Source of the DNA: an uncultured archaeon
GTDB taxonomy: Archaea; Aenigmatarchaeota; Aenigmatarchaeia; QMZP01; JAFGSV01
Length of the DNA: 49,841 nt
NCBI GenBank assembly: GCA_964442905.1
Contig: CAYUBD010000001.1
Location: 1-49,841 of the forward strand
Direction: 5' to 3'
Shown: one piece after another, positions 25,555 to 47,506 of the stretch
How positions within the stretch are numbered: the stretch's first letter is position 1
Layout: every line of letters begins with the position of its first letter
Position numbers and translations under genes: made by a program
The notes under the pieces: model-generated
Database searches by the model: none
The model's input: only the letters and a program-made list of their open reading frames with translations
What the model was told of the DNA's origin: nothing

Positions 25555-27092
25555 ATTACCGCTCCTATGTATGCAGGCGTATTAATCAGTGCCTGTACAG
25601 CCGGCGCCACGACCATTTCCATTGCAAGATTCGGGAAAATACCGAACAGGAATATGAAGAATACCAGCACGCACATGGTGAATGCCATGCTCAGTGGAAG
25701 TGGCCTGACATGTCCCTTGTACGGCACTCCGAGGAAGACTGACGCGAATATCTTTACGAACAGTGCAAGCATCATTATGCTCCCGACTATGCCTATTATG
25801 GCCAGCATGGGATTGAGGTAATACACAGATTCATAGATGAGCAGCTTGCTTGCGAATCCATTCATCGGTGGCATGCCCGAAATTGCCAGCAGACCTATCA
25901 TGAACATCAGCGTCAGGAAAGCTGATCTGTGAGCAATCCCGCTGACATCGTCTAGATCCTCTTTCTTTGTTATGTACAGCAGACTGCCTGTCACAAGGAA
26001 TATCAGGCTGAGGTCGAGGATATCATTAAGCATGTGGAACACGCCTCCTGAAAATGCCTGAAGAGCAAATCCGCTGACATTGGGAAGAGCTGTCATGCCT
26101 GTTCCTACGCCAAGAAGCACATATCCTATTTCCGCAACAGCAGCATAACCTATCAGCCTTCTGAGATTCTTCTGCGGGATTGCCATTGTCACGCCCACAA
26201 AAACGGACAAAGCACCAAGGATTACCGCAAGCCACCCAAAAGTGCCGCTGAGAACAGGACCGAAGATTGTGAAGCATATCCTGAACAGGACGTACAGCGA
26301 CAGGATCGCTGTAGTAAGAAGCAGTACGGTAACCTGCGAGGGTGCCTGCTGGTATGCATCAGGCTTCCACATGTGCACAGGGAAAGAGCCGCTCTTGAGC
26401 AGCAGGGCCGAAGCCAGTAGTGACAGTGCAGCGACATCAAGGAATGAATACCTTATCACGACTTCACCTGCTATTGCGGCCATGTTGAGCAGGTGATACT
26501 TCCCGTAAAGAATACCAACGCCGAAAAGCAGGAAGAGTGCACCCACGGATGAGATGACTATGTACTTGAATGCAGCTTCAAGCGATTCCCCGGACCTGTG
26601 ATACGCTATAAGGCCGGCAGAAGCTATGGATGATATCTCAAGGAATACGAATAGTGTGAAGAAGTCCCCTGTGAGCGTAAGACCAATCATTGCGGCTGAA
26701 AGCAAAAGCAGTAACGTGTAGAACTTGTCAAGGCCCTCCTCCTCTTTCATGAACTTCCATGAATATACGGCGGCAAGGAATGCTATGCTTATTGCCAGGA
26801 GAGCGAACAGCGCAGAAAATGCGTCTGCAACTAGTATAATACGTATGGGGAATCCGAACGGCGATGTCAGGCTGGGAACCGATGCACCAAGCGTATATAC
26901 ATGCGTATTGCCAGCGAATACATCCTGAGCGAGCAGTATCATCACAAGTTCCGTGAATGCCAGCGAAAGTATTACCCAGAGGTTCCTTACCAATTTTCCC
27001 ACTTTCCCAACAAGCGGTGCAACGAATGCTGCCATCAGGGGTATGGCTATCGCGAGTGCAAGCGAGTGCTCAAGCAGAAAAGGCAGGCTCAT
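25551..27092 (-). CDS. mbhH: Membrane-bound hydrogenase subunit MbhH (MrpD/NuoL-M-N antiporter-like)
   Basis: 513-aa polytopic protein with the antiporter-like 'proton-conducting' fold. Confidence 0.85.
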   Translation of the reverse strand: MSLPFLLEHSLALAIAIPLMAAFVAPLVGKVGKLVRNLWVILSLAFTELVMILLAQDVFAGNTHVYTLGASVPSLTSPFGFPIRIILVADAFSALFALLAISIAFLAAVYSWKFMKEEEGLDKFYTLLLLLSAAMIGLTLTGDFFTLFVFLEISSIASAGLIAYHRSGESLEAAFKYIVISSVGALFLLFGVGILYGKYHLLNMAAIAGEVVIRYSFLDVAALSLLASALLLKSGSFPVHMWKPDAYQQAPSQVTVLLLTTAILSLYVLFRICFTIFGPVLSGTFGWLAVILGALSVFVGVTMAIPQKNLRRLIGYAAVAEIGYVLLGVGTGMTALPNVSGFALQAFSGGVFHMLNDILDLSLIFLVTGSLLYITKKEDLDDVSGIAHRSAFLTLMFMIGLLAISGMPPMNGFASKLLIYESVYYLNPMLAIIGIVGSIMMLALFVKIFASVFLGVPYKGHVRPLPLSMAFTMCVLVFFIFLFGIFPNLAMEMVVAPAVQALINTPAYIGAVI

Positions 27093-27427
27093 CCTGACAG
27101 CCTCCTCTTTCTTGTATCAAGGCTCTTCCAGTGCGGATAAATCAGTATGATGAAAGACAGCATGAGCGCAGTCACTGCCAGGCTTATGACTATGGAAGTC
27201 AGGGTGAGCGCCTGTGGAATAGGCAGCACCATTTCAAGCTGCGTGGCAGCCGTGAATATGGGCGCTATCCCTCCTTCCCTGTATCCAAGTGAGACCAGGA
27301 AAAGATTCACGCCGCCGCTTATCACGGTTATCGCCATGACTATCTTTATCAGGTTCTTCTTGAGCACAGCCGCGGATATGCCCAGCGTAATCATCAGCAC
27401 GACTGCAATGAAGTGTATGCTTATCAT
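27089..27427 (-). CDS. mbhG: Membrane-bound hydrogenase subunit MbhG (MrpC/NuoK-like)
   Basis: Three-TM small protein in the collinear position. Confidence 0.7.
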   Translation of the reverse strand: MISIHFIAVVLMITLGISAAVLKKNLIKIVMAITVISGGVNLFLVSLGYREGGIAPIFTAATQLEMVLPIPQALTLTSIVISLAVTALMLSFIILIYPHWKSLDTRKRRLSG

Positions 27428-27894
27428 TCTTCCTCCTTGGGGTAGTTGAACATGAGCACCAGAATCGCGGTCAGTGCGGCAGCGACCTCAAGGCCCACCG
27501 CGACGTTCATGATGGGCACCACACCACCGCTCAGCAGGTAACCGGGATTCGGCCCGAACGGTACGGACATCCCGAAATAATATGAGCTGTTGGCCAGGTA
27601 GTTGCTGAAGAAGGTGAATGAAAGTCCTACCAGAGCAACCAGGCCGAAAAGAAGCAGGCCTATGCTTTCAGCCATGGAGAATAGTCCCTCCCTTCCCGCG
27701 AGCTTCCTGGCCTTGTCCTTTCCAAACGCCACAAGGAACATTGCTACAAGCGTTGCCAGGATTGCTCCTCCCGGGAATCCGCCGCCAGGTGACAGGTGCC
27801 CGTGGACGATAACATAGAAACCGAACATCATTACCGGAACCAGAAGTATGCCGACAACTGTTCTCACAATTACGGACATTTCCGAACCTATCAT
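27424..27894 (-). CDS. mbhF: Membrane-bound hydrogenase subunit MbhF (MrpB-like)
   Basis: Polytopic membrane protein in the collinear position. Confidence 0.7.
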   Translation of the reverse strand: MIGSEMSVIVRTVVGILLVPVMMFGFYVIVHGHLSPGGGFPGGAILATLVAMFLVAFGKDKARKLAGREGLFSMAESIGLLLFGLVALVGLSFTFFSNYLANSSYYFGMSVPFGPNPGYLLSGGVVPIMNVAVGLEVAAALTAILVLMFNYPKEEE

Positions 27895-28169
27895 CTTCCG
27901 AACCCCCTGAACAAAAGGAAAATACCGCTGGCTGCCGCGAAGAGTACACTAGCTTCGCCAAGTGTGTCCAGACCCCTGTAATCGAATAATATCGCAGCCA
28001 CGATGTTGTTTGATCCTGTATCGGCCTGGCCGTTTTGTATGAAGTAATCATCCATGGTGGCGTGTGATGGCATGCCGAAGTCATGAAGCTTCGTTGACGT
28101 AAAGACAAGGAATGCGAACAGCGCCAGCAGCGTCAGCACCTTAAACGTCTTTATCTTACACATTCTCAT
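27891..28169 (-). CDS. mbhE: Membrane-bound hydrogenase subunit MbhE
   Basis: Small membrane protein in the collinear position. Confidence 0.65.
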   Translation of the reverse strand: MRMCKIKTFKVLTLLALFAFLVFTSTKLHDFGMPSHATMDDYFIQNGQADTGSNNIVAAILFDYRGLDTLGEASVLFAAASGIFLLFRGFGR

Positions 28170-28404
28170 ACCTCTCTGTCTTTCTTATGGCCATCATGAA
28201 TATGGCGGTCGTCAGCCCTGCTCCCACGGCAGCCTCTGCTATGGCTACGTCCGGGGCATGAAGCAGGTAGAACTCCACGGACAGCAGAAGGCTCATGGCT
28301 GCCAGATAGATGACTGAAACGAGCAGGTCACGCACCTTTAGTGCCATGAATGCGGTACCTACCACACCGGCTAGCAGCAGCCCGTGTATGACCTCCAGTA
28401 TCAT
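28156..28404 (-). CDS. mbhD: Membrane-bound hydrogenase subunit MbhD
   Basis: Small three-TM protein in the collinear position. Confidence 0.65.
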   Translation of the reverse strand: MILEVIHGLLLAGVVGTAFMALKVRDLLVSVIYLAAMSLLLSVEFYLLHAPDVAIAEAAVGAGLTTAIFMMAIRKTERYENV

Positions 28405-28748
28405 TTCTTTGCACCCCCAAGAGCATCCACTATGGCTTTTGCAGGCTTTATTCCGCTCCTGTGGGCGGCCCTTGCTATGGCATGCGCACCGGTAGGGTTT
28501 GTAAGGAGTATGATGAACATCACTATGAATGTGTGTACAGAAAGGGATACATAGACAATCTCACCGGAAAGGACCATCATTACACCGTAGGCAATGACCC
28601 CGAGATAGAGGAATATCGAACCGAACGTTGTGCACTTGGTCGCACCATGCATCCTTGTGTAAACGTCAGGGAACCTGTGGAGGGCGAGCGTTCCAAGTGT
28701 ATGGAAAATCATGCCTATTCCTATCAGAAGGTATACCAGCCAGTTCAT
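28401..28748 (-). CDS. mbhC: Membrane-bound hydrogenase subunit MbhC (MrpG-like)
   Basis: MnhG-like 'HAxxKxxxxG' region ('MHGATKCTTFG'). Confidence 0.7.
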   Translation of the reverse strand: MNWLVYLLIGIGMIFHTLGTLALHRFPDVYTRMHGATKCTTFGSIFLYLGVIAYGVMMVLSGEIVYVSLSVHTFIVMFIILLTNPTGAHAIARAAHRSGIKPAKAIVDALGGAKK

Positions 28749-29029
28749 GCCCTCTCCTCCAGGTATTTTGATATGAAGAGGGTGGTCACGAAAGCCAGCA
28801 TGGCATACACGATCGCAACATCCACGTATATGATTTCACCGAATGCAGCTCCGAGCAGCACGAAGGTAGCCACTGCAAGCGTATTTATGGTGTCGACGGC
28901 CACGACCCTGTCAGGTGCGGTCTTTCCAAGGAAAGCCCTGATTACGGCTACCATCATCAGAAGTACCAGTACGCCTGATACCAGCAGGAATTCGCTTCCC
29001 ATTATCATTCTGCTATCCTCCTCGCCCAT
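28745..29029 (-). CDS. mbhB: Membrane-bound hydrogenase subunit MbhB (MrpF-like)
   Basis: Three-TM small protein in the collinear position. Confidence 0.7.
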   Translation of the reverse strand: MGEEDSRMIMGSEFLLVSGVLVLLMMVAVIRAFLGKTAPDRVVAVDTINTLAVATFVLLGAAFGEIIYVDVAIVYAMLAFVTTLFISKYLEERA

Positions 29030-29520
29030 TTGATGAACGAGCCGCAGACTTCCTCTGGCTTCGGTGTCTTGCTGTCAAGGTGTATGCAGTGCACATAAAT
29101 GTTGTTCTTCTCGTCGACATCAACTGACAGCGTCCCAGGTGTAAGCGTTATGGAATTTGCAAGAAGAGCTACTCCAAAATCGTTTCTGAGCCCGGTTGGA
29201 ACCTTTACAATTCCTGGCCTTATTCTTCCTGTAATTACCCTATATGCCACGTCAATATTCGCCTTGGCCATGCTGAAGAATAGTGGCCCGACAGCATAAA
29301 TCACGAACTTTGCTATTCGTGCAGGGCTGATGAATCCAATGGCTGATTTGACATGCACGCCCTTCAGCATCTTCCTTACCACAACAGCAGTAAAAAAGGA
29401 AAAAACCAGACCGGTTGCCGCTTCACTCGTGCTCCAGAAAAGGATGTCTGTGCCTGACCCTGCAGTAAGAGCCAGATAGAATATCAGCGAAAAAACGAAT
29501 GAGACAACCAAAACTGCCAT
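29005..29520 (-). CDS. mbhA: Membrane-bound hydrogenase subunit MbhA (MrpE-like)
   Basis: MrpE-like protein and first gene of the array. The start is set at the ATG at 29520 (MAVLVVSF); the track ORF uses an upstream TTG that would overlap the FTR-like gene. Confidence 0.7.
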   Translation of the reverse strand: MAVLVVSFVFSLIFYLALTAGSGTDILFWSTSEAATGLVFSFFTAVVVRKMLKGVHVKSAIGFISPARIAKFVIYAVGPLFFSMAKANIDVAYRVITGRIRPGIVKVPTGLRNDFGVALLANSITLTPGTLSVDVDEKNNIYVHCIHLDSKTPKPEEVCGSFIKWARRIAE

Positions 29521-29564
29521 ACAGATTATTGTATCGCGGTTATTATATTTATTCGAGTTAGACG

Positions 29565-29828
29565 CTATTTCACAAAAAGGTTGCAATGGCAGTGACCCAT
29601 TTCATTTATCTCGTCCTTGTGGTAGATGCACGGGCAGATTATCTTTTTGTCCACTTCCTTGTTTCCTGTGACCATCCTGCACGGGCAGTATCTGGCTCCG
29701 TGCTTCTTCTCGTTCGCAAGAAGACCATTGCAGAGACCCTCGACTATTTTATCATTGGGATTAAGTTTGAATCCCTGGCTTTCAGCATATTTGGCATATG
29801 TCTTCTTCATCTGTTCTTTCTCATCCAT
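29565..29828 (-). CDS. Ferredoxin:thioredoxin reductase catalytic-subunit-like protein (FTRc/FDR family)
   Basis: Diagnostic CPC ... CPC ... CHC spacing ('YCPCRM', 'ICPCIYH', 'GHCHCNLF'). Confidence 0.8.
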   Translation of the reverse strand: MDEKEQMKKTYAKYAESQGFKLNPNDKIVEGLCNGLLANEKKHGARYCPCRMVTGNKEVDKKIICPCIYHKDEINEMGHCHCNLFVK

Positions 29829-29881: not shown

Positions 29882-30049
29882 TCACTTGCTTATCGCTCCA
29901 ACAGGACACGCACTTATGCCTTCATCGATGCATGATGCCTTTGGGTCCTTGACGTGGGCCTTCCCGTCGTCTTTTATCTCGAATCCGTCAGGACATACTG
30001 CTGTGCAAGCACCGCAGCCTATGCATTTATCTGCGTCAACATTAACCAT
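29882..30049 (-). CDS. Mono-cluster [4Fe-4S] ferredoxin (55 aa; shorter than every ORF listed in the supplied track)
   Basis: Hand translation of the minus strand gives MVNVDADKCIGCGACTAVCPDGFEIKDDGKAHVKDPKASCIDEGISACPVGAISK. GGAGGT lies 7 nt upstream of the ATG. The overlapping plus-strand 60-aa ORF has no motif. Confidence 0.8.
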   Translation of the reverse strand: MVNVDADKCIGCGACTAVCPDGFEIKDDGKAHVKDPKASCIDEGISACPVGAISK

Positions 30050-33968: not shown

Positions 33969-34424
33969 TTAAACCCACCTTCTGACTTTCTTCCTGTAAT
34001 CCAGATATTTCTTCCCGAAGGCCTTCTCAAGGTTCTTATCCTCGTCACCTATAAATATGTATTTCATCATTGCCACGAAAGCAAAGGGGAAAATGAACGT
34101 GAGAAGTGATCCGAGAAGCACGGATTCCCCGAGCAGTATCATGAACATTCCCAGGTACATGGGATGCCTACTTATCCTGAATACGCCTGAGACAACGAGC
34201 TTTGAGGGCATTAGGTGGGGCTTCACGGTCGTGGAATTCTTCTTGAACGCCATGTCAGCCTGGATGTTGAGCATGATGCCTATAATTATCAGCAGCGTAC
34301 CGGCATAGGAAACGGGCGCTTCTATCACTGCAACTGAAGGCAAAAGTAAATGCACGACTGCTGACACCGCAAGAAGCATGAGGAAGTAGTTGGTCGGCAT
34401 TATTCTGTTCAGTTTCATACCCAT
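33969..34424 (-). CDS. ICMT/PEMT-family membrane methyltransferase-like protein
   Basis: 'GVFRISRHPMYLG' and the C-terminal 'E...L...FG..Y..Y...V' motif. Confidence 0.65.
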   Translation of the reverse strand: MGMKLNRIMPTNYFLMLLAVSAVVHLLLPSVAVIEAPVSYAGTLLIIIGIMLNIQADMAFKKNSTTVKPHLMPSKLVVSGVFRISRHPMYLGMFMILLGESVLLGSLLTFIFPFAFVAMMKYIFIGDEDKNLEKAFGKKYLDYRKKVRRWV

Positions 34425-35830
34425 CCCAAAAGCATGGCTATCCCGAGAAGCACTATTATCGACCCTGCCACAAGGTGCAGGTACTTTATGTTATTGTCCT
34501 TCCATCCTGAGACGTTCTCGACTTCCCTGACACCGAGATATACGACTATGGTTATAGCAGCCATCGGGAGAACGAATATAAGGTTGTAAAGCAGCAGAAG
34601 CGGTATCGTCTGCAGAAGGTCCATGGCTGACAATATGCCACCGGCTATCACGTAAGGACCTATTGTGCATGGAAGAAGGAATATAGTCACGAAAGCGCCC
34701 ACTACGAATGCTCCGGCAGGGGATGTTATCTGGCCTATGACCTTCTTGAGCCTGGGCCTCATGAACATGGGCATCTCGGTCATCAGGCCGCCTGGCTTGT
34801 ACCAGAAGAAATCCTTGAGGTTCAGTATCCCCAGTATGATTGCGGCGAATCCGAGTATCTTGTAGAGCGTCAGCCTCACATATGTTATGGCCTGTATGAG
34901 CTGGAAGAACTTTATTATGACAAGACCGTAGATTATGTACATCACGAAGACGGAAACCGTGAAGGCTATTCCGGCAAGCAGGATGTTCCTCTTCTTCTCA
35001 GGGTTGTAAGTGAGTATCGATATGAGCATGAGCGTAAGCACGGCCAGCGCGCACGGATTGACGGCATCCACTGCAGCCAGCGACAGCAGCTTCACGAGTG
35101 TGATATCCACAGGGCTTTCGCTCATTTCAGCATGGGTGATGTTGTCACACGGATGGTCTACTGTATGGTTCGTCTCTACGCATTCACCGTTCCACTCAAG
35201 CTTTGTGTTCCCGATTATCAGGGCATGCTGAAAATCCACACTGCTTCCCGAAAGAGGTACTGGCTCTGCGACATCGAGAGAGAAATCCTCACCTTCGACA
35301 ATCTTTGTGATGTCTTCCTCTGTGAGGAGCGCCCTCATTACCGAATCATCAGAACCACTGCCGGGAACGAGAATCCTGTCCTTCGTCCATATCTTGGGTT
35401 TTCCCGGAAGCGATGAGATGTCAAGTTCTTCGATGGCGACGTTCCTCCCGTCTAAAAGCGGACATCCACTCTTTCCAAGATTCCCCATGAAAGCCTCGGC
35501 GTTCTGTATTATTGGAATGTCCCCTATGAGCGCGTTGTCACTATCGAATATCAGAAGGGGCACACCCATGCCAGAGCCGTATACCTCATCATAGCTGTAA
35601 AGCAATGGAGCGTTCTCCCCAATCTGATAAAGCTCATACTCTATGATTACGAGTTCAGGGTGGCTGACAAGAAGGTCGTTCAGTACAAATGGGTCTGCAT
35701 TGGCACAATGCGGGCAACCTATGCCTGTGAAATAGACCGCGCATATGCTTTTATCAGCCTGCGCACTTGCCTGCGGGACCGCGAGAGCAATCAAAGCCAA
35801 TATTACCAGAAATGTTATTGCATTTTTCAT
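34415..35830 (-). CDS. Extracytoplasmic thioredoxin-like domain fused to a CcdA/DsbD-type thiol-disulfide transmembrane transporter
   Basis: Signal peptide; 'GIGCPHCANADP' in the N-terminal domain; a C-terminal 6-TM region with 'VNPCALAVL' and 'LLPCTIGPY'. Confidence 0.75.
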   Translation of the reverse strand: MKNAITFLVILALIALAVPQASAQADKSICAVYFTGIGCPHCANADPFVLNDLLVSHPELVIIEYELYQIGENAPLLYSYDEVYGSGMGVPLLIFDSDNALIGDIPIIQNAEAFMGNLGKSGCPLLDGRNVAIEELDISSLPGKPKIWTKDRILVPGSGSDDSVMRALLTEEDITKIVEGEDFSLDVAEPVPLSGSSVDFQHALIIGNTKLEWNGECVETNHTVDHPCDNITHAEMSESPVDITLVKLLSLAAVDAVNPCALAVLTLMLISILTYNPEKKRNILLAGIAFTVSVFVMYIIYGLVIIKFFQLIQAITYVRLTLYKILGFAAIILGILNLKDFFWYKPGGLMTEMPMFMRPRLKKVIGQITSPAGAFVVGAFVTIFLLPCTIGPYVIAGGILSAMDLLQTIPLLLLYNLIFVLPMAAITIVVYLGVREVENVSGWKDNNIKYLHLVAGSIIVLLGIAMLLGWV

Positions 35831-35910
35831 GGTATCATATTTTGTTTGTTTATATAAAATATTTTACGGTTTTCTTCGCTTTTCGGCATAGGATTTTTTT
35901 GCAGTTTCTT

Positions 35911-36237
35911 TTACAATCTTCCTCTTCCCTGACCGCCGCCGCCCCGGCCTTGACCTCTGCCGTCCCGGGGTCCTATACCGAGACCTTTTCCCCCGCCGGA
36001 TCCCATACCTCTGCCACGGCCGTATCCCTGGCTAAATTTAGTGTCCGTATCCTTATTGCCGGTTCCAGTATCATCAAGCATGAGAGCTCCTGTGGGGCAT
36101 GCATTTGCAGCATCATGCAGGCATCCTGCCTTTTCATTACTTATTCTCGCCTTTCCCCCGGACATTTCTATTCCTTCCGGGCAGACGCCCGCGCAGGCTC
36201 CGCAACCCGCACACCTTGCTTCGTCTATTCTTACCAT
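35911..36237 (-). CDS. Mono-cluster ferredoxin fused to a Gly/Arg-rich tail
   Basis: 'CAGCGACAGVCP ... C...ANACP' has the same Cys pattern as the 55-aa ferredoxin. It is followed by 'GYGRGRGMGSGGGKGLGIGPRDGRGQGRGGGGQGRGRL'. Confidence 0.8.
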   Translation of the reverse strand: MVRIDEARCAGCGACAGVCPEGIEMSGGKARISNEKAGCLHDAANACPTGALMLDDTGTGNKDTDTKFSQGYGRGRGMGSGGGKGLGIGPRDGRGQGRGGGGQGRGRL

Positions 36238-36238
36238 C

Positions 36239-36541
36239 TTAAACCTTCCACCCTTCCTGCGCCAGTTTCATGAATCTTGCCTTTTCCTTCTCATCCATTT
36301 CGGTCATTTTTACCTCAATCTCTACATTCCTGTCCAGCTTCCTTATGTATTCCTTTACAAGTTTGATGAGACCTTCCTTAATCGGGATATTCAGGAACGG
36401 AAGCGCCAACGTAAGAGTAACTTTATCCTTTCCGATGCTTATATTTCTTATCATCCCGAGCTTCACAAGGCTGTAACTTATCTCCGGATGCATGGCCTTT
36501 GATAGTGCACCTTCAACATCTTCTTTTGAGATTTGTTCCAT
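36239..36541 (-). CDS. DUF59 (MIP18/SufT-like) Fe-S assembly domain protein
   Basis: 'V..AL..V.DPE(I)...LV.LGMI' core ('ALSKAMHPEISYSLVKLGMI'). The start is set at the ATG at 36541, and its stop abuts the next gene's ATG. Confidence 0.7.
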   Translation of the reverse strand: MEQISKEDVEGALSKAMHPEISYSLVKLGMIRNISIGKDKVTLTLALPFLNIPIKEGLIKLVKEYIRKLDRNVEIEVKMTEMDEKEKARFMKLAQEGWKV

Positions 36542-36554
36542 ATCAGTCCCTCTT

Positions 36555-36914
36555 TTATCCATCGGCCGCATTCTCCATAAGACTTTCAATTCTTTCTATA
36601 CTCTTTTCTGCAACTTTTATTTCTTTGTTGAAATGCCTTTTCATCCTTTCGAGAAAAGCTTTCTTTTCCTCTTTAGTATTAAAATTTTCCATAAGCTTCT
36701 TGGTTTTTTTCAGATTCTCTTCCACTTCTTGTGGAATCTTTTCACTATCATGCTCTACTGCTCCTTGAGGACATGCATCATGGCATTTTCCGCATCTAAT
36801 GCATTTTTCCATGTCTATTTCAGCCTTTCCTTCTTCCAGGCTGATAGCTCCTGATGGACACATTTTGACGCAAATTCCGCAACCAGTGCATCTCTCTTTA
36901 TCAATCCATGGCAT
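36555..36914 (-). CDS. 2x[4Fe-4S] ferredoxin with a charged helical C-terminal tail
   Basis: 'CTGCGICVKMCP' and 'CIRCGKCHDACP', then about 65 aa rich in K/E that are predicted to be helical. GAGGTG SD upstream. Confidence 0.8.
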   Translation of the reverse strand: MPWIDKERCTGCGICVKMCPSGAISLEEGKAEIDMEKCIRCGKCHDACPQGAVEHDSEKIPQEVEENLKKTKKLMENFNTKEEKKAFLERMKRHFNKEIKVAEKSIERIESLMENAADG

Positions 36915-36985
36915 TTCAACACCTCGATTTTTTAATTCCGTGTTAAATCATTTTATATAATTTCAATACTTAATAATTTTACCCA

Positions 36986-37372
36986 TTATCTCTTGCGCTT
37001 TGGTACAGGATCTCTTATCACGGTTTCCGGGTCAGTCGTGGAGAGGAAAACGTTCTTTGTCATTTTGAGAGCACCCGTAGGGCATATGTCCTGGCACAGG
37101 CCGCAGAAGCAGCATTTGCCAAGGTCAATCTTCGGGTAGGTTTTCTTGTATTTATCCTTATATTTTTTTGGCAATTCTACCATTTCTATGGCTTTATTCG
37201 GACATATCCTGGCGCAAAGCCCGCAGGACACGCACTTGTTTATGTCGTAGTCATGCTCTCCCCTGTATCCTTCGGCTATGTGTATAGATTCCGCGGGAAA
37301 CCTAACCGTAATCGGTCTTCTGAACATGTTCTTAATAACCTCTGATAACATTCCGAATTTCATTTTCTTCAC
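36986..37372 (-). CDS. NuoI/MbhN-like 2x[4Fe-4S] subunit
   Basis: 'CVSCGLCARICP' and 'CCFCGLCQDICP'. ATGA overlap with the upstream gene. Confidence 0.8.
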   Translation of the reverse strand: MKKMKFGMLSEVIKNMFRRPITVRFPAESIHIAEGYRGEHDYDINKCVSCGLCARICPNKAIEMVELPKKYKDKYKKTYPKIDLGKCCFCGLCQDICPTGALKMTKNVFLSTTDPETVIRDPVPKRKR

Positions 37373-38472
37373 CTATCCATATCTGCCGGGCATGGATTCA
37401 AGCTCCAGTAAATAGCCGGCACGTCTGCAATCTGGCTGCCTACCAGCAGATGCTCGAGAACCGGTATCATATGCAAAAATGACGGTCCCCTTATCTTGCA
37501 TCTGTAGGGACTCCCGGTTCCGTCTCCGACCATATACACGCCTGCCTCTCCTCTTGCAATCTCATTCCTTATGTATACTTCCCCCTTTGGAATCTTGGCA
37601 GCCAATTCGGGCTTCAGCGAAGGCTCTCTCACTTTCCCTCCGGGCAATTCATTCAGAGCCTGCCTTACGATTTTCATCGACTGCTCGATTTCCCTTATCC
37701 CGATAACATATCTGGAGTACGAGTCTCCTTCATTCATAATCGGGACATCAAAATCAAACTGGTCATATACTTCATACGGATCGTCGAGTCTCACATCGGT
37801 CTTCATACCGCTTGCCCTCAGGACAGGTCCGGTCGCGCCCAATCTCACAGCATCTTTCAGTTTTAGCACACCGATACCCTTCATTCTTGAGAGCAGAGCG
37901 GGGTTTTCGAGCTTTTCCAGCATCTTCATTCTGTCTACCTTATCCAGAACCTTTAGTATTCTTTCTCTGGCTCTGTCAGGCAAGTCCCTTCTTACCCCTC
38001 CCGGGCATATGTAGCCTGCGGGATAGACCCTTCCCCCGGTGACGGACTCGAAGATATCCAGTATGTAGTCCCTGTAGCCGAATGCCAGCTTGAACCCCGT
38101 ATCGAAGCCGGTGCCCATTGACATAGCGCCATACCAGATGATATGAGATTGTATCCTGGACAGCTCTGCCATTATGACCCTTATGTATTTCGCCCTTTCC
38201 GGAATCACTGTTCCAGTCAGCTCGTCCACAGCTTCTGCATGTGCCAGGTTCCATGCAAGCGGCTCCAGTACACAGATCCTCTCAGATAACACCCCATTCA
38301 GCATAGGTGTCCTGCTTTCCATTAATTTCACAAAACCCCTGTGCAGATATCCCGGATCTGACTTGGCACCTGTGACATTTTCCCCGTTCACCTTCAGTTT
38401 TACGGAGAAATTTCCGGAGCCTGGATGGGCCGGTCCAAATGGAAGGTCGTAATCTTTTGACACTTCAATCAT
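37369..38472 (-). CDS. NuoD/[NiFe]-large-subunit-like protein lacking two of the four Ni-Fe cysteines
   Basis: Collinear with MbhL, but the motifs read 'RICVLEPLAW' and 'NPCPADMDR' and the protein ends there (no cleavable tail). Confidence 0.85.
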   Translation of the reverse strand: MIEVSKDYDLPFGPAHPGSGNFSVKLKVNGENVTGAKSDPGYLHRGFVKLMESRTPMLNGVLSERICVLEPLAWNLAHAEAVDELTGTVIPERAKYIRVIMAELSRIQSHIIWYGAMSMGTGFDTGFKLAFGYRDYILDIFESVTGGRVYPAGYICPGGVRRDLPDRARERILKVLDKVDRMKMLEKLENPALLSRMKGIGVLKLKDAVRLGATGPVLRASGMKTDVRLDDPYEVYDQFDFDVPIMNEGDSYSRYVIGIREIEQSMKIVRQALNELPGGKVREPSLKPELAAKIPKGEVYIRNEIARGEAGVYMVGDGTGSPYRCKIRGPSFLHMIPVLEHLLVGSQIADVPAIYWSLNPCPADMDR

Positions 38473-38987
38473 GCTTCCTCCTCCCAGTAAACTTTTTCTC
38501 TTTCGTTTTCCTTGTCATAATGCTCCTTTCTTACGTATGCTTTCCAGTCAAAGTCACGCCTGAATGGTGGGGGCCCTTTCCAGTTCTCCAGGAAGAGTTC
38601 TGACAGGTCGGGATTTCCGGTGAATTTCACTCCGAAAAGCTCGTGTGACTCCCTTTCGTGTATCTGGGCGTTCTTCCCCCATATCGTGCCGACAGAATCG
38701 ATGACAGGGTCCTTCCTACTTATCTTTGTCTTTATGGTAAGCGCCATTTTATCATCGTATGACCATAGATGGTATGCGATTACGTATTTCCCCTCTTTAA
38801 GTATATCCGTGACGGAAATTGCAGATAGGTGGTCAAATCCGAGACCTTTCACATGCTTGCACAGGCTCGGCAGCTTTGCCTTCGTGGTTTCCACCCAAAT
38901 CCTGCGCTCTTTTTGGACCCTCACGTCGGCTGAGAATTTTCTCCTTATCTTACCAGCCATTTCCTTCCCACTTATATTAGTGCTCAT
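38469..38987 (-). CDS. NuoC/MbhK-like subunit
   Basis: NuoC-like 'LSAISVTD ... HLWS ... ERE.HELFG' features. The start at 38987 forms ATGA with the upstream stop. Confidence 0.8.
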   Translation of the reverse strand: MSTNISGKEMAGKIRRKFSADVRVQKERRIWVETTKAKLPSLCKHVKGLGFDHLSAISVTDILKEGKYVIAYHLWSYDDKMALTIKTKISRKDPVIDSVGTIWGKNAQIHERESHELFGVKFTGNPDLSELFLENWKGPPPFRRDFDWKAYVRKEHYDKENEREKVYWEEEA

Positions 38988-39424
38988 TTGCTCTCCTTCC
39001 CGTTCATCTTTTCCACGTGTTCGACAATCTGGTGGATGGCATGGAATACTGCCTCGGGCCTCGGCGGACACCCGGGTATGTACATGTCCACAGGTATATG
39101 GTCCCCCACCCTTTTAACGGTATTGTAAGAATCCCAGTACATCCCACCGCTCATGGTGCATGAACCCATGGCTATAACAACTCTCGGCTCAGGCATCTGC
39201 TCATATATCCTTTTGGCTCTTTCCATGGACTTGAAGGTCTGGTATCCCGCGATGATCAGGCAGTCAGCGTGCCTGGGTGACCCGACCGGTATTATGCCGA
39301 ACCTCTCCATGTCCCACCTAGAGCCGACAACTGGCAGCAGTTCCGTGAAACCGCAGGAATTGAACCAGTTAAAAATCCATATGGATTTTACGAGCCGTTT
39401 TAGTTTTTTTGATTCTTCAGACAT
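38984..39424 (-). CDS. NuoB/MbhJ-like subunit with only three cluster cysteines
   Basis: 'NSCGFTELL' (compared with MbhJ 'GSCNGCDIE'), 'GSCTMSGG' and 'GCPPRPE'. Confidence 0.85.
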   Translation of the reverse strand: MSEESKKLKRLVKSIWIFNWFNSCGFTELLPVVGSRWDMERFGIIPVGSPRHADCLIIAGYQTFKSMERAKRIYEQMPEPRVVIAMGSCTMSGGMYWDSYNTVKRVGDHIPVDMYIPGCPPRPEAVFHAIHQIVEHVEKMNGKESK

Positions 39425-40754: not shown

Positions 40755-42050
40755 TTACTTCACAGACTCGCAGGCCGAGACAATCGCATCGGCAAATGGC
40801 AGTGGTGTCAGTTCCGGATGCGCAGCATAATTCACTTTGAGCAGGTCGCTGATTGTTGATTTTTTCTGGATAGCGAGAGAAATTACGTTAATAATTCCCG
40901 GCACGATGTGGCCAGAGCCTATAACCTGCGCCCCTATCACCTTCTTATCATCATCGAAAACCAGTTTTGTCGTCAATGGCTTCGCGTCAGGCTGGGTATC
41001 GTATTTGTCCAGCGTTTCGCTCGTTCCTACTTTGTAATTTATTTCCTCGACCTTTGCCTGCTCTTCCGTCAGTCCCACTCTTCCCAGGGAATGTCCGGCT
41101 ATCTCCGTTACGGTTGGGTTAAGCACTCCCTCAAATGCAGACTTCCTGCCGCATATGCTCATCCCTGCGACCTTTGCCTGCAGGACCACTGTGATTACCA
41201 GTCCGCTTTGCAGGGGATTCTTTGTCAGCATGGAAAACGTCTCGGCACAGTCGCCCACGGCGTAAACATTCTTGATGTTAGTCCTCATCCTTCTGTCTGT
41301 TTTTATGCCGAACTTCCCCACCTTTATCCCGCTTCTTTCCGCCAGACCCGTTTCGGCCCTTACCCCGGCCGTCATCAGAACGACATCGGCCTTTATGTCC
41401 ATGCCTCCTGCGTGAACGGCTTTGACTTTGCTGTCACCTATCAGCTTTTCGACAGGCTTACCCAATAATACATTTACTCCGTTTTTCGACAGCGCGTCCT
41501 CAATCTTTCCGGAGAATTCACGGTCAAATGAAGGAAGCAGATATGGCAGCATTTCGACCAGAGAAACCTTGAACTTATCCGACAGCAGAGCGGCCGTCTC
41601 CACGCCTATCATGCCTCCGCCGATTATAGCGATGTCATGCGAGGCTTTCAGCGCCTTGGATATCTTCATGGTGTCATCAGCTGTTCTTATCGTAAAGACA
41701 TTCTCCAGGCCTATGCCATCTATCGGGAGGAGAAACGGCTCCGCGCCGGTTGCAAAAACCAGATGGTCGTATCTGAAGCTTTCCTTTTTTGTCCTGACCG
41801 TCCTGCTTTTGACATCAACTGATAGGGCTTCATCATGTATCAGCCTGGCGCCCGTTCCTGTTATCATGGATTCAGGCTTTTTGCATTTCCCGAGGCTGTC
41901 AATGCCCGCAAGCACGTAGGGTGACGAGCACCGGATGAAAATGCTTTTCTCTTTACCTATAACGGTTATGTCAGCGTCTGGTCTGATCTTCTTGATCACA
42001 TGGGACGTGACAATTCCCCCGGCACCAGCTCCTATAATGACGACTTTCAT
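40755..42050 (-). CDS. FAD-dependent pyridine nucleotide-disulfide oxidoreductase (CoA-disulfide reductase / NAD(P)H sulfur reductase / NADH oxidase class)
   Basis: 'VIIGAGAGG' FAD motif, single redox Cys context 'FIRCSSPYVL', second dinucleotide motif 'IIGGGMIGVE', and 'AVGDC'. Confidence 0.85.
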   Translation of the reverse strand: MKVVIIGAGAGGIVTSHVIKKIRPDADITVIGKEKSIFIRCSSPYVLAGIDSLGKCKKPESMITGTGARLIHDEALSVDVKSRTVRTKKESFRYDHLVFATGAEPFLLPIDGIGLENVFTIRTADDTMKISKALKASHDIAIIGGGMIGVETAALLSDKFKVSLVEMLPYLLPSFDREFSGKIEDALSKNGVNVLLGKPVEKLIGDSKVKAVHAGGMDIKADVVLMTAGVRAETGLAERSGIKVGKFGIKTDRRMRTNIKNVYAVGDCAETFSMLTKNPLQSGLVITVVLQAKVAGMSICGRKSAFEGVLNPTVTEIAGHSLGRVGLTEEQAKVEEINYKVGTSETLDKYDTQPDAKPLTTKLVFDDDKKVIGAQVIGSGHIVPGIINVISLAIQKKSTISDLLKVNYAAHPELTPLPFADAIVSACESVK

Positions 42051-42102: not shown

Positions 42103-43005
42103 CTATTTAATGCTACCAGCTTCCTCAGTGACGTTCTTGAGTATATCCATGAAAATAGATTCGAATTTCTTTTCATAAACCACCACAGGCTTCCCGTTGA
42201 CAAGGGCATCCACGAATCTCCTGTCGTATGGTATTTTACCCAGAAGCTTGATACCCATGCTCTCCGCAAAGCGCTCTATCTTCCTGCTGAACTCCGGATT
42301 GAGGTCGAACTTGTTTATAACCAGTCCGCTCTTTATTCCGAAATGGCTCACTATCTTGAGCGCCCTCTTTACATCACTTAGGGCAGACGGCGTGGGCTCA
42401 GTGACGGCTATCACGTAATCAGATCCCATGACCGACGCTATCACCGGGCATCCTATACCAGCAGCCGCGTCTGTCAACATGATATCCGCCTTTTCGTCTG
42501 CCGCCAGGGATGAAGCCCTGTCCTTGACAATATATATGACCTTCCCTGAGCCCGACTCGCCCATCTTCAGCTGGCCGGTGACTAGAGGGAAGCCGTAAGG
42601 GCTCCTGCCGGTTCCTATCATGGCGTTCTTCACTTCCTCAAGCCTTATAGCTTTCTCCGGGCATATGAGCTCGCAGGCCCCGCATCCCTCGCAGAAAAGG
42701 CTCCTGAAGACCGGTATTTTCTTCTTCTCGTTCCAGCTTATGGCACCGAACGCGCATACATCCCTGCATTTCCCGCAACCTGTGCATCTCTTCTCGTCAA
42801 GCACTGCTTTCTTGTTCGTGGTTATATCTTCCCAGGAATCGTAGTCCTTTTCGTCCATACCCAGACTCAGTCCCAGATCCGGCGCATCGACGTCGCAGTC
42901 TGCCACGACTATCTTCTTCTCTTTTGCGAGAAGCACGGAAAGCGACGAGCTGAGCATGGACTTGCCGACCCCGCCCTTGCCTGAAACGACTGTTATCTTC
43001 TTCAT
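42103..43005 (-). CDS. MinD/ParA-superfamily P-loop ATPase with an inserted 2x[4Fe-4S] ferredoxin domain (COG1149 type)
   Basis: Deviant Walker A 'GKGGVGKS'. Insert with 'CTGCGKCRDVC' and 'CEGCGACELICP'. Confidence 0.85.
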   Translation of the reverse strand: MKKITVVSGKGGVGKSMLSSSLSVLLAKEKKIVVADCDVDAPDLGLSLGMDEKDYDSWEDITTNKKAVLDEKRCTGCGKCRDVCAFGAISWNEKKKIPVFRSLFCEGCGACELICPEKAIRLEEVKNAMIGTGRSPYGFPLVTGQLKMGESGSGKVIYIVKDRASSLAADEKADIMLTDAAAGIGCPVIASVMGSDYVIAVTEPTPSALSDVKRALKIVSHFGIKSGLVINKFDLNPEFSRKIERFAESMGIKLLGKIPYDRRFVDALVNGKPVVVYEKKFESIFMDILKNVTEEAGSIK

Positions 43006-43784
43006 AAGACAGGCCTCCTCATTTTGGTCTCAGTCATATCTATGGGCTTTGCGTCCGGTTTTTCAAGGTCATAGATGGATATCGCATTGAGCCCCTTTTT
43101 GATGAATATATCCGTTATCCCCCCAAGCTCACTTCCGGAGAGAGGCTTTGACGTGCTCGGCCTTAAGGGTGTGTCTATCTGCACCTCGTCAGGCTTTATG
43201 GACGCAGCGAGATCAGCCAGCTCATCCGCGAGCCCCCGGTTCTCCTCAATCAACATAATCTGCAGTGACAACTTCCCCTCGTATTCGCTCCTGAAAAGCC
43301 TGAGTGAGTTTATTATCTCGCCAAGCCTCAGGCCTTCAGCGGGCCTGTTTACCTTCATGAACGTCTCGTAATCCGGAGCGTCGAGTTTCGCGACCACGTG
43401 GCCTATCTTCTTCAGGTCTTTCCGGACATCGGGACGGGGCATCAGGGACGAGTTCGTCAGTATTGCAGTCGGGAGTCCGCTCATCTTCTTTGCGGTTTCC
43501 GCCAGCTCTCCCAGATTGGAAGCAAGCGTGGGCTCTGAATTGCCGGAGAATGTTATTATCTGCGGGTCAGTCTTCTTGAGCGCATCCTGCAGGTCCTTCT
43601 CGACAGCTTCCCTCTGCACGAAGACCTTCCTTTCGGTCATGTATGTGAGGGGGCCCAGAGACTGTAACTGGCAGTAGATGCAGTCGAAGCTGCAAATCCT
43701 GCTGCCGGGTGCGGAGCACACGGGGTCTATGCCTAGTGAAATCCCGAGCCTCCTTGAAGGCACGGGGCCGTAGACAGTCTTCAT
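43002..43784 (-). CDS. Small radical SAM enzyme
   Basis: 'YGPVPSRRLGISLGI' N-terminus and the 'CSFDCIYC' CxxxCxxC motif. ATGA overlaps on both sides. Confidence 0.85.
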   Translation of the reverse strand: MKTVYGPVPSRRLGISLGIDPVCSAPGSRICSFDCIYCQLQSLGPLTYMTERKVFVQREAVEKDLQDALKKTDPQIITFSGNSEPTLASNLGELAETAKKMSGLPTAILTNSSLMPRPDVRKDLKKIGHVVAKLDAPDYETFMKVNRPAEGLRLGEIINSLRLFRSEYEGKLSLQIMLIEENRGLADELADLAASIKPDEVQIDTPLRPSTSKPLSGSELGGITDIFIKKGLNAISIYDLEKPDAKPIDMTETKMRRPVL

Positions 43785-44443
43785 ATCTCAATCACGCTCC
43801 CGGCCTTTATCTCCCTGAAATTGTCCGGATACTTCTTTCGTATCTCGGCGGTATGCTGCGTGCAGTGACATGGTGAAAGCATCTCTATACCATCCAGCTT
43901 CCCGAAATCCGAGAAGCCGTGGAAGCCGCCCATTATCCAGTATATCTCTCCCATCTCACGCGCTTTCGTTATTATGTTTCCGACTCCGGGATGTGAGCAT
44001 CCCGCTATGACTATAAGGCCTTTCGGTGTCTTCAGCACGAGCGACTGCTCGTCGGGCAGGTCGCCGCCGCTTTCCAGCTCACCGGTCGTGTAGACGTTCT
44101 CCGTTATCCTTTCCTGCCCTCTTATCTCCTTTATCTTCGACCTTCCCCTGGCCGTGGCCTTCGTCTTCCCAGAGAAGGACGCAGGGATGAGCACCTCCGG
44201 GTTTTCCGTGTGCTTCAGCAGCTCATCCAGCCCGCCGGTGTGATCCCAGTGGTCGTGAGAAAGCACGATGATGTCTATGGATGCGGGGTCTATGCCCAGC
44301 TTCTCCATGTTCTCCATAAGGGGTTTTCCCTTATCACCGCAGTCGAAAAGTATCTTTTTGCCGTTCTCTATAAGGCATGAGAAACCCCATCCTGACCTGA
44401 GTCCCTCTTCAGCATTGTTGTCATACACAATTGTTATCTTCAT
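43781..44443 (-). CDS. Metallo-beta-lactamase-fold protein (COG1237 type)
   Basis: 'LSHDHWDH' metal motif and 'CSHPG'. The start at 44443 forms ATGA with the upstream stop. Confidence 0.8.
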   Translation of the reverse strand: MKITIVYDNNAEEGLRSGWGFSCLIENGKKILFDCGDKGKPLMENMEKLGIDPASIDIIVLSHDHWDHTGGLDELLKHTENPEVLIPASFSGKTKATARGRSKIKEIRGQERITENVYTTGELESGGDLPDEQSLVLKTPKGLIVIAGCSHPGVGNIITKAREMGEIYWIMGGFHGFSDFGKLDGIEMLSPCHCTQHTAEIRKKYPDNFREIKAGSVIEI

Positions 44444-45285
44444 TTCATCAGCCACCCCGCAAGCGCCTTTATGTTGGCATCCTTCACAGCTTCTCCTTTT
44501 GAATAGCTCTGCATGACGGATTTGCTGTATGGTATCCTTGCTATTATCTCGACGCCGTACTTTTTTGCAATCTTCTCTATGAGCTCAGGCTTTCCCACGT
44601 CCGACCTGTTGAGGATTATCTTGCCCGGAACGCCAAGCACCTTCATCAGCTTCAGTATCAGCTCAAGGTCGTGTGCTCCCAGCGGCGTGGGCTCTGTTAC
44701 AGCCAGCGCGATGTCGTTCTCCAGGAGCGCTGTTATCACGTCGCAGTGCGTGCCTGCGGCCGTGTCGGTTATGACGAAATCATAGTCGGGGCTTCTCGAT
44801 TTAACGATATCCTTGGCAGCTTCCACAACGAACTCCGAGACCGGCTCCCCGGGCTTCAGCTCCCCGCTTATCAGGTCAACACTGCCTTTACTTCCCTCAT
44901 AAACGGTGCCTATCTCCTTGTAGGTCTTTCCTATTGCGCCTGTCGGGCAGGCTATCATGCAGGCCCCGCAACCGCTGCACTGCTCGGGAACGAATATGGG
45001 ATATTTCCCTTTTATCTGAACGATGGAGTTCGTCGTGCATACTTCGGAACACCTTCCGCACTTCGTGCATTTGCTGAAATCCCACTTTGGTATGACCTGT
45101 TTCACAGTCTTTACCTTCCTTCTTCTTGTCGAAAGAATCAGATGGTCGTTCGGGCAGTCCACGTCAGCATCAAAAAGCAGCACCTTCCCGCGCTTTGAAA
45201 GCTCAGCTGCCAGTGCAGTGGCTACCGTTGACTTTCCGGTGCCTCCCTTCCCGCCGGTTACAGCTATCTTCAAAGTTATCACCAT
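44440..45285 (-). CDS. MinD/ParA-superfamily P-loop ATPase with an inserted ferredoxin domain (second copy)
   Basis: 'GGKGGTGKS'. Insert with 'CTKCGRCSEVC' and 'CSGCGACMIACP'. Confidence 0.85.
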   Translation of the reverse strand: MVITLKIAVTGGKGGTGKSTVATALAAELSKRGKVLLFDADVDCPNDHLILSTRRRKVKTVKQVIPKWDFSKCTKCGRCSEVCTTNSIVQIKGKYPIFVPEQCSGCGACMIACPTGAIGKTYKEIGTVYEGSKGSVDLISGELKPGEPVSEFVVEAAKDIVKSRSPDYDFVITDTAAGTHCDVITALLENDIALAVTEPTPLGAHDLELILKLMKVLGVPGKIILNRSDVGKPELIEKIAKKYGVEIIARIPYSKSVMQSYSKGEAVKDANIKALAGWLMK

Positions 45286-45343
45286 TCATGGACCCGACAC
45301 GTTCCGAAGAATAGAAAATCCCGGACAGCCGGCAGAAACTTCA

Positions 45344-45673
45344 TCAGCGCCCGCAGTTTCCCTCAAGGTCTTTAAGCCTGTCAAAATTACTGACAACTTC
45401 CCTAACGGTCCTGAACGTGCCTGTCTTCAGCTTTATTCCCATTTTGCCGCACAGCTCAATCGCCCTCATGCCCATTTCGAACGTGTATATGGCATCCACG
45501 TCGAGGCCTTCGAGAGCCACGACAGGCGAGCATCCCTGCGTGGGCTTGACTTCCACTACATCAAGCTTCTTCCGGGAAGAATCGTATACCGCCATGAGCT
45601 GCACGTGACCGAAATGGGGATGCACCTTGGAATCCATTCCCTTGTTCTCTATCAAAGCCATTGCTATTTTCAT
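45344..45673 (-). CDS. NifX/NifB-C-terminal-domain-like protein (COG1433 type)
   Basis: 'MKIAMAL ... HFGHVQLMAVYD ...' matches the dinitrogenase FeMo-cofactor-biosynthesis-domain pattern. Confidence 0.75.
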   Translation of the reverse strand: MKIAMALIENKGMDSKVHPHFGHVQLMAVYDSSRKKLDVVEVKPTQGCSPVVALEGLDVDAIYTFEMGMRAIELCGKMGIKLKTGTFRTVREVVSNFDRLKDLEGNCGR

Positions 45674-45698
45674 TCACAACACCTTTTTATCCTGAAAA

Positions 45699-46145
45699 TC
45701 ACTGCTGCCACCGTCTGCCTCTGCCGGCACCTGTTCCGCCGCCTCTTCCGCTTCCCATGCCGGATCCGAAACCTCCGGGCATGCCTATTCCCATCACGCC
45801 GGGAGCATTAACCTTTGTAAGCTTTCCCTGCATGAACTGCATGACGTTTTCCTCAACTGTTCCTGCGGTTCCGGCGTATGCTTCTATCCCGACCTGCTGG
45901 AAGACTCCGAATGCTCTGGGACCGACCGCGCCTGATATGACTGCCTTGACGCCCTCATTCCCGACCGTCTGGGCGGCCATTATGCCTGCGCCGCCGCCCT
46001 GCATTGCCGCGCCGTTCTGGACATCCTTGTGACCGGTTATCTTCTTGCCGTCTGTCTCTACTATGACAAACCATGGGCACCTTCCGAAAACCGGACTTGT
46101 CTGGCTTTTCAGTCCCTGCCCTGTCGAACTTACTGCTATCTTCAT
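45699..46145 (-). CDS. IssA-like protein: NifX/NifB-family domain with a Gly/Arg-rich C-terminal tail
   Basis: 'MKIAVSSTG ... VFGRCPWFVIVE ...' domain plus the tail 'GMPGGFGSGMGSGRGGGTGAGRGRRWQQ'. This is the same architecture as the P. furiosus thioferrate storage protein IssA. Confidence 0.75.
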   Translation of the reverse strand: MKIAVSSTGQGLKSQTSPVFGRCPWFVIVETDGKKITGHKDVQNGAAMQGGGAGIMAAQTVGNEGVKAVISGAVGPRAFGVFQQVGIEAYAGTAGTVEENVMQFMQGKLTKVNAPGVMGIGMPGGFGSGMGSGRGGGTGAGRGRRWQQ

Positions 46146-46195
46146 ATTATTACCTCCAAAATTTTCTGTTTGAATAGATTTCTTTTACTCCTTTA

Positions 46196-46519: not shown

Positions 46520-46563
46520 TTTTCACCCTAGATATTTCACCGTTCAAATCCACTTCAATGCTA

Positions 46564-46974: not shown

Positions 46975-47001
46975 ATCAACACCTCCTATTCAATTTTAAC
47001 A

Positions 47002-47436: not shown

Positions 47437-47506
47437 TATGAACATATGTCCATAATGATTTAAAAAGTTTACGGTGGATGGGCTTTGTTTAAGCATGCTT
47501 TCGCAG

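Follow-up and report, generated by a model that had tools for sequence, protein, structure and literature searches.

A conserved, ferredoxin-specific glycine/arginine tail as a candidate anchor at iron-sulfur handling machinery in uncultured archaea and bacteria

The window analyzed here is a 49,841-nucleotide stretch of DNA from an uncultured Aenigmatarchaeota archaeon (contig CAYUBD010000001.1, assembly GCA_964442905.1). It encodes a small ferredoxin, Fd1, that ends in a glycine- and arginine-rich tail. We found that this tail contains a strictly conserved motif that is restricted to ferredoxins and appears to be undescribed so far. A prokaryotic Gly/Arg tail of "low complexity" can, as this example illustrates, be a strictly conserved motif. 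To our knowledge, the storage, transport, and re-mobilization of iron-sulfur (Fe-S) material by anaerobes are poorly understood; IssA is the only characterized Fe-S store that we know of, and we know of no established route by which electrons reach it. The Fd1 tail is a testable candidate anchor for an electron carrier on IssA/NifX-type machinery. As an invariant, ferredoxin-only sequence, it provides a short, synthesizable peptide for fishing out the target, and thus an experimental handle on electron supply to Fe-S stores.

A tail motif restricted to ferredoxins

The gene, its parts, and a tail-less paralog are:

35911-36237, minus strand: Fd1, a mono-cluster [4Fe-4S] ferredoxin with a C-terminal Gly/Arg tail, 108 aa (open reading frame; Pfam Fer4/Fer4_13/Fer4_15; homologs)
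36070-36237, minus strand: Fd1 core, residues 1-56, CxxCxxCxxxCP ... C ... CP, six Cys (tail-less paralog; AlphaFold model, AF2)
35914-36069, minus strand: Fd1 residues 57-108, a variable polar linker and the Gly/Arg tail, predicted disordered (AF2 predicted local distance difference test, pLDDT)
35932-35982, minus strand: invariant tail motif of Fd1, L86-G102, LGIGPRDGRGQGRGGGG (alignment of 50 non-redundant sequences; codon variation)
29882-30049, minus strand: tail-less paralog of the Fd1 core, 55 aa (47% identity)

The core has the CxxCxxC...CP ligands of a single-cluster [4Fe-4S] ferredoxin, with Cys invariant in 24 homologs, and its Pfam scores lie above the family cut-offs (Fer4 31.7 bits, cut-off 21.1; Fer4_15 31.8, 22.4; Fer4_13 26.4, 24.5). 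Two extra Cys are presumably positioned as in disulfide-bearing single-cluster ferredoxins. The nearest named homologs are from Woesearchaeota, Aenigmarchaeota, and Altiarchaeales. The identical Cys spacing and the identity shared with the tail-less paralog (E 2e-17) indicate that the tail has been added onto a standard core, as an earlier note on this DNA had proposed; the open reading frames named there also lie where it placed them, on the minus strand and with the sequences it quoted. The tail is 51% Gly and 18% Arg, carries a net charge of +7, and holds one Pro and one Tyr. In the AF2 model the core has a pLDDT of 75-84 and residues 57-108 fall below 50; the tail is predicted to be disordered by itself.

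The idea that the tail matters required that relatives keep it, and they do: it is present in all 24 Fd1 homolog clusters. A genome scan yielded 26 loci among 185,579 species genomes and a metagenome scan yielded 54, for a non-redundant total of 54; the two scans also returned several hundred motif matches without tblastn confirmation. Across 50 alignable non-redundant proteins, 11 positions (L, G, G, P, R, D, G, R, G, G, and G) are 100% conserved within the context GxGxG-L-G-x-G-P-R-D-G-R-G-x-G-x-G-G-G-G, and the carriers span archaea and bacteria. Pairwise identity among these proteins is 0.83 in the motif versus 0.50 in the core. Between one-cluster and two-cluster carriers the motif is still 0.81 identical, compared with 0.39 for the core, and the linker varies from 18 to 51 residues. 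Codons at the invariant positions vary freely (all four for Gly, six for Leu, and five for Arg are in use, and Pro and Asp also vary synonymously), so selection on the tail acts at the protein level. The same variation rules out a DNA-level cause of the conservation, such as a repeat or RNA element.

A hidden Markov model (HMM) of the tail alone, searched against 1.84 billion representative proteins, recovered 23 clusters at E<=0.001. About 17 are small ferredoxins or ferredoxin fragments, and no DUF5320 or NifX-like protein was among the matches. By type, the tail carriers comprise 35 one-cluster proteins, 18 two-cluster proteins, and 2 others. The tail had no match in Pfam, none among PDB sequences at E<=10, and none in the literature searched on ferredoxin Gly/Arg tails.

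Its composition is like that of RGG/GAR-type regions, which raises the question of whether the tail binds nucleic acid or forms condensates, as may the tail of the DEAD-box helicase encoded in the window (18801-20078), with no connection to Fe-S. RGG-like segments in Methanosarcina DUF134 and DUF5320 proteins have been flagged as possible quadruplex binders (PMC7565180), and arginine/glycine low-complexity regions of prokaryotes are enriched in RNA-binding proteins (PMC6821194); both count in favor of this idea. However, RGG regions are degenerate repeats that keep composition rather than sequence, and a tail with 11 fully conserved positions does not fit that description. When the Fd1-tail profile was scored against each segment and 300 shuffles of that segment's own composition, Fd1 reached 41.9 bits and none of its shuffles did, but neither the helicase tail nor the DUF134 C-terminus scored above its shuffles. 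The module is also confined to ferredoxins, and no RNA-related genes recur among 146 neighbor proteins surveyed from 28 loci. We consider a nucleic-acid role improbable.

The position of the motif at the C-terminus, behind a flexible linker, could also suggest an encapsulin-type cargo-loading peptide or other sorting signal, and we take its "GLGIG" to recall encapsulin loading peptides faintly. We give this scarcely any credence: the shell family is missing from the same 146 neighbor proteins, Leu is followed by Arg in 74% of sequences and by Ile in only about a quarter, and no transmembrane segment follows the tail.

Some variants of the motif were also observed. Its GPRDG[RE]G unit occurs as tandem repeats outside ferredoxins in three proteins: P0277, which has a signal peptide, CPGFVDADGDGVCDN, and five GQGPRDGRG repeats; P0286, an anti-sigma-like protein with His-rich GKGPRDGEG repeats; and the lipoprotein-like P0269. 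Two tandem copies of the tail motif are present in P0015, a ferredoxin from Lokiarchaeota. In P0283 (L081:1383-1652) an N-terminal fragment of a thioredoxin-reductase-like flavoprotein is in frame with the tail motif and has no ferredoxin domain, reflecting a gene fusion, a frameshift, or an assembly error.

Gene neighborhoods and a possible anchoring role

Fd1 lies in an operon with a second ferredoxin, Fd2, and a DUF59 gene, and the part of the window from 29.5 to 47.5 kb holds a whole set of genes for Fe-S handling and thiol reduction:

36555-36914, minus strand: Fd2, a 2x[4Fe-4S] ferredoxin with a helical hairpin extension, 119 aa (Pfam; homologs; AF2)
36558-36752, minus strand: C-terminal helical hairpin of Fd2, residues 55-119, helices 60-75 and 81-118 (alignment; AF2)
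36239-36562, minus strand: DUF59/FeS_assembly_P protein, 107 aa from the ATG at 36562 (Pfam PF01883, E 2e-11; 107-aa gene call in L001)
36951-36960, minus strand: TATA-like box ttatataaaa, 37-46 nt upstream of the Fd2 start (read from the sequence)
45699-46145, minus strand: NifX/IssA-type (Nitro_FeMo-Co) protein with a short G/R tail (Pfam E 1.7e-21)
46564-46974, minus strand: DUF5320 protein (Pfam PF17253, E 6e-23; alignment)
44440-45285, minus strand: MinD/CbiA P-loop ATPase with an inserted 2x[4Fe-4S] domain (Pfam); second copy at 42103-43005
29565-29828, minus strand: ferredoxin:thioredoxin reductase (FTR)-like catalytic subunit (Pfam FeThRed_B, E 6e-25)

The DUF59 gene, which the earlier note does not mention, starts within the end of Fd2 (8-nt overlap) and stops 1 nt from the Fd1 start, making Fd2-DUF59-Fd1 a tight three-gene unit. 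The TATA-like box is probably its own promoter.

Gene company was counted over the 54 non-redundant loci, many on short contigs, with local profiles for recurrent neighbors. A full-length Fd2 adjoins the tailed ferredoxin in 10 loci and lies within 3 kb in 18; a NifX-like gene adjoins it in 13 and lies within 3 kb in 16. One or the other is adjacent in 23/54 and within 3 kb in 34/54. Most of the NifX-like neighbors are themselves fusions (~190 aa) of a ferredoxin and a Nitro_FeMo-Co domain, as identified by Pfam, and in two loci (L016 and L026) the ferredoxin part is an Fd1-type core. DUF5320 occurs in 9 loci and MinD-Fer4 in 14, such that NifX-like, DUF5320, or MinD-Fer4 genes are found in 30/54. 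The DUF59 Fe-S assembly gene occurs in 5 loci as well as in the window operon. These frequencies are far above chance, judged by an expectation of one to a few copies per genome and with no control set. Overall, many uncultured archaea and bacteria encode the tailed ferredoxin next to genes for NifX-like, MinD-Fer4, DUF5320, DUF59, and thioredoxin-system proteins.

Addressing what the tail may do, we tentatively favor a role in anchoring the ferredoxin to an invariant anionic target in a NifX-like system, most likely the Fe-S cargo. Fd1 would then be an ordinary low-potential [4Fe-4S] ferredoxin with an added ferredoxin-specific anchoring module. The module would consist of a flexible linker of 20-50 residues and a cationic Gly/Arg segment around the invariant turn G-L-G-x-G-P-R-D-G-R-G-x-G-x-G-G-G-G, in which P-R-D-G is probably a strong turn former with alternating Gly/Arg arms at both sides. 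The disordered tail could serve as a short linear motif by which the electron carrier is held at a target within the NifX-like (IssA-family)/MinD-Fer4/DUF5320 set, either Fe-S cargo on the NifX-like domain or the cargo-loaded domain itself. Electrons may be fed in or withdrawn during build-up or reductive release of the Fe-S material. In the window lineage, the DUF59 protein and Fd2, which brings a helical hairpin of its own, would be co-translated partners.

A motif that stays invariant in both archaea and bacteria, with no protein neighbor common to all loci, may fit a non-protein ligand. All three possible pairwise fusions also exist: ferredoxin with tail (Fd1), ferredoxin with a NifX-like domain, and NifX-like domain with a cationic tail (45699-46145; IssA). 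The earlier note had suggested that the ferredoxin tail puts an electron carrier on thioferrate of the IssA kind, and had linked the tail to Fe-S handling through IssA and DUF5320. We retain the first suggestion, applied to NifX-bound Fe-S material, as our leading reading, minus the kinship to the IssA tail; for the second, the homology falls away and a functional link is plausible from the neighborhoods and domain fusions.

Several points weigh against the anchoring role. Tail binding is predicted from sequence and context, and the enrichment of neighbors is judged against expected copy number. The Fd1 tail has no detectable sequence kinship with the Gly-rich segments of IssA-like or DUF5320 proteins: its profile gives 3.1 bits on the NifX-like tail at 45699-46145, a score reached by 5 of 300 shuffles, and -3.2 bits on the DUF5320 N-terminus (6 of 300). 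It also lacks the Pro and aromatic content of IssA-type tails. Given that it is invariant and that IssA tails are poorly conserved, a specific protein partner fits equally well. Neither Fd2 nor a NifX-like gene lies within 3 kb in 20/54 loci and no neighbor is universal. Thioredoxin-system genes (24/54 loci: thioredoxin 20, FTR-like 6, HdrB-like 7) are about as frequent as those for Fe-S handling.

The last point underlies the main rival, in which the tail is a docking motif for ferredoxin-dependent thiol/disulfide reduction. Here, Fd1 would be tethered to a disulfide reductase (FTR-like or HdrB-like) or to Fd2, the Fe-S handling genes being no more than neighbors in a shared redox island. Thioredoxin is the commonest neighbor other than ferredoxins and methyltransferases (10 of the 146 proteins; within 3 kb in 17/54 loci). 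In L004, L008, L009, and L041, the gene right after the tailed ferredoxin is FTR-like, and an HdrB-like CCG protein is adjacent in 3 loci. The window itself encodes the FTR-like protein, three thioredoxins, a DsbD-like protein, and a CoA-disulfide-reductase-like protein. A linear motif recognized by a folded protein would typically be this strictly invariant, Pro and Asp included. However, a partner conserved across archaea and bacteria should recur recognizably, and none does; with FTR in 6 and HdrB in 7 of the 54 loci, there is no general thiol partner. Docking to Fd2 is difficult to reconcile with its being far commoner than the tailed ferredoxin (349 versus 24 clusters) and mostly occurring without it. 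Fd2 without a tailed ferredoxin keeps the same gene company. We regard thiol-partner docking as possible, if on balance rather unlikely.

The commonest non-ferredoxin neighbor is a small class I S-adenosylmethionine (SAM) methyltransferase of 183-199 aa, within 3 kb in 16/54 loci and directly adjacent in 8. The tail could therefore be a substrate or switch for modification, for example by arginine methylation. This is very unlikely: the best family matches of the enzyme, all below cut-off, are arsenite methyltransferase models rather than protein arginine methyltransferases, the gene is not in the window operon, and its co-occurrence with thioredoxin and HdrBC-like genes suggests small-molecule chemistry. 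Copies are found at L006:4377-4934, L027:1847-2404, L032:10649-11236, L007:4904-5503, and L024:2072-2638, and a gene order seen in bacteria is thioredoxin-HdrC-HdrB-methyltransferase-ferredoxin. Another recurrent neighbor is an unannotated family of 74-80 aa with an NHxGC motif and an acidic C-terminus (L005:4648-4878, L014:5753-5995, and L015:5200-5424), without a match in Pfam or NCBIfam. In 15/54 loci it is encoded no more than 3 kb from the tailed ferredoxin, and in P0252 it is fused to the Fd2 C-terminus.

An extension of the anchoring role is that tailed ferredoxins, ferredoxin-NifX-like fusions, and tailed NifX-like proteins are versions of one redox-wired Fe-S store. In such a store, GxGxGPRDGRGxGxG would form a sequence-specific arginine-ladder turn along an inorganic Fe-S polymer on the NifX-like domain, and the [4Fe-4S] cluster would inject or withdraw electrons to build or dissolve the mineral. 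This extension is doubtful, but if true, it would represent the first known electron carrier tethered to a biomineral by a dedicated peptide.

Relation to DUF5320 and NifX-like tails

The earlier note had claimed that the two ferredoxins carry the two halves of a DUF5320 protein, the Gly-rich segment on Fd1 and the coiled coil on Fd2. In this form the claim fails. Profile-profile comparison with DUF5320 by hhalign gave probabilities of 11.7% for the tail, 13.6% for the whole Fd1 family, and 10.8% for the Fd2 family (33 columns, helix), and neither Fd1 nor Fd2 had a Pfam DUF5320 match at E<=0.1. In comparison, the window protein at 46564-46974 matches PF17253 with 82.3 bits (cut-off 27). The DUF5320 N-terminal signature, MPxGDGTGPxGxGxxTGRGxGxC with an invariant Cys (42 sequences), is not present in Fd1, and in DUF5320 the coiled coil is C-terminal.

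Homologous grafting is thus extremely unlikely, although a few observations point toward it. The Gly-x-Gly pattern scores slightly above shuffles (5-6 of 300), hhalign pairs the Fd2 helix with the DUF5320 coiled coil, and DUF5320 genes occur in 9/54 loci. However, these scores amount to 3 and -3 bits, whereas the true tail reaches 42, and the small excess is no more than shared periodicity, not homology. The Gly-rich segments noted earlier on Fd1, the NifX-like protein, and the DUF5320 protein do exist, but their kinship is limited to composition and periodicity. The Fd1 tail has no profile similarity to the other two segments, but its invariant positions show that it is not generic low complexity.

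The Fd2 tail had been described as a weak echo of the DUF5320 coiled coil. The region paired by hhalign is indeed this one, at the low probability given above, but Fd2 does not resemble the coiled coil (the TKEQE...RIxEL region) in other respects. Its K/E-rich, helical extension is folded as a hairpin in the AF2 model (pLDDT 92), with invariant residues of its own (H55, D56, E58, I60, E63, N67, F87, R90, and E103). Fd2 is a separate, large, and highly conserved family (60-80% identity across its clusters) with a family-specific hairpin rather than a generic coiled coil. Its two CxxCxxCxxxCP motifs, eight invariant Cys, and Pfam scores above cut-off (Fer4 68.8 and Fer4_10 61.3 bits) identify a 2x[4Fe-4S] ferredoxin. 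In a Foldseek search of the model against PDB the core matched ferredoxin domains, and no structural relative was found for the hairpin. No natural Fd2-Fd1 fusion was found among long Fd2 homologs; P0252 joins Fd2 to a different small protein, and P0150 is an Fd2 homolog with an N-terminal extension. The literature searched on DUF5320 provided no function.

Separately, several NifX-like C-termini (L052:9092-9481, L035:6284-6658, L026:3558-3947, L032:1500-1994, and 45699-46145 in the window) carry TGPxHMGM or a short G/R tail. TGPxHMGM recalls the DGTGPMGMG of the DUF5320 N-terminus, and in the protein at L032:1500-1994 a coiled coil of the DUF5320 type (21 bits) comes after the NifX-like domain. 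For the window NifX-like tail, alignment to the DUF5320 N-terminus reaches no better than E 0.21. The ferredoxin tail stands apart, but NifX tails and DUF5320 may still be genuinely related.

Other genes of the window and known systems

Directly downstream of the ferredoxin operon, 33969-35830 (minus strand) encodes a membrane protein of 471 aa, in which a CxxC thioredoxin-like part at the N-terminus is combined with a transmembrane domain of the DsbD type. This gene has its own TATA-like box near 35850 and overlaps a gene for a PEMT/ICMT-type membrane methyltransferase. A DUF134 protein (47002-47547, minus strand) has a C-terminal Gly-rich linker, GKGLKGGQGLGPGG, followed by CxCPxCG...CPxCG, which is likely a zinc ribbon. 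The 766-aa protein at 47507-49807 (minus strand), whose open reading frame reaches near the window end, combines an ADP-forming acyl-CoA synthetase-like region with a GNAT acetyltransferase at its C-terminus, as Pat-type protein acetyltransferases do. A NuoD/MbhL-like large subunit (37369-38472, minus strand; with 36986-39424 and 24279-29586) has a single Cys in each NiFe-binding motif (RICVLE and NPCPADMDR). This agrees with the pattern reported for MBS, a sulfane reductase in which two of the four Cys of these motifs remain (PMC7684303). With its Mrp-like subunits, the CoA-disulfide-reductase-like gene (40755-42050), the thioredoxins, and the IssA-like gene, the window resembles the sulfur-response set of Pyrococcus.

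Among known systems, eukaryote-type RGG/GAR regions are like the Fd1 tail in composition and disorder, but they are degenerate repeats, whereas the tail is one fixed, ferredoxin-restricted motif. DUF5320 (PF17253) shares a Gly-rich segment with Arg, a P-x-(G)-D-G-x-G element, and overlapping gene neighborhoods; its motif differs in being N-terminal, with an invariant Cys, a following coiled coil, and another Gly register. The region at 42103-47547, with NifX-like proteins, MinD/Mrp-type ATPases with ferredoxin inserts, and DUF134, shares its components with the orange-protein (ORP)/MrpORP gene set of Desulfovibrio (see PMC6345978), which is not known to include a tailed ferredoxin or Fd2. Matches of this region to NCBIfam MrpORP are partial and far below the family cut-off. 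Pyrococcus/Thermotoga-type mono-cluster ferredoxins (Fer4_13 and Fer4_15) have the same CxxCxxC...CP ligands as the Fd1 core, to which Fd1 adds a 52-residue disordered extension with a conserved motif.

The closest functional comparison may be IssA of Pyrococcus furiosus (PF2025). Its tail is rich in Pro and aromatics (11 Pro and 14 aromatics of 70), and is loosely conserved, and this only within Thermococcales (PMC5524996). The Fd1 tail is also cationic, Gly-rich, C-terminal, predicted to be disordered, and attached to an Fe-S protein. Fd1 genes keep company with NifX-type (IPR003731) domains, and the window shares an MBS-like complex and a CoA-disulfide-reductase-like gene with the P. furiosus sulfur response. 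Unlike IssA, Fd1 has a ferredoxin domain; Fd1 and Fd2 match only Fer4 families, and the IPR003731/Nitro_FeMo-Co domain is carried instead by the protein at 45699-46145. Having one Pro, hardly any aromatics, and a motif that stays invariant from archaea to bacteria, the Fd1 tail is not an IssA tail, but it may work like one.

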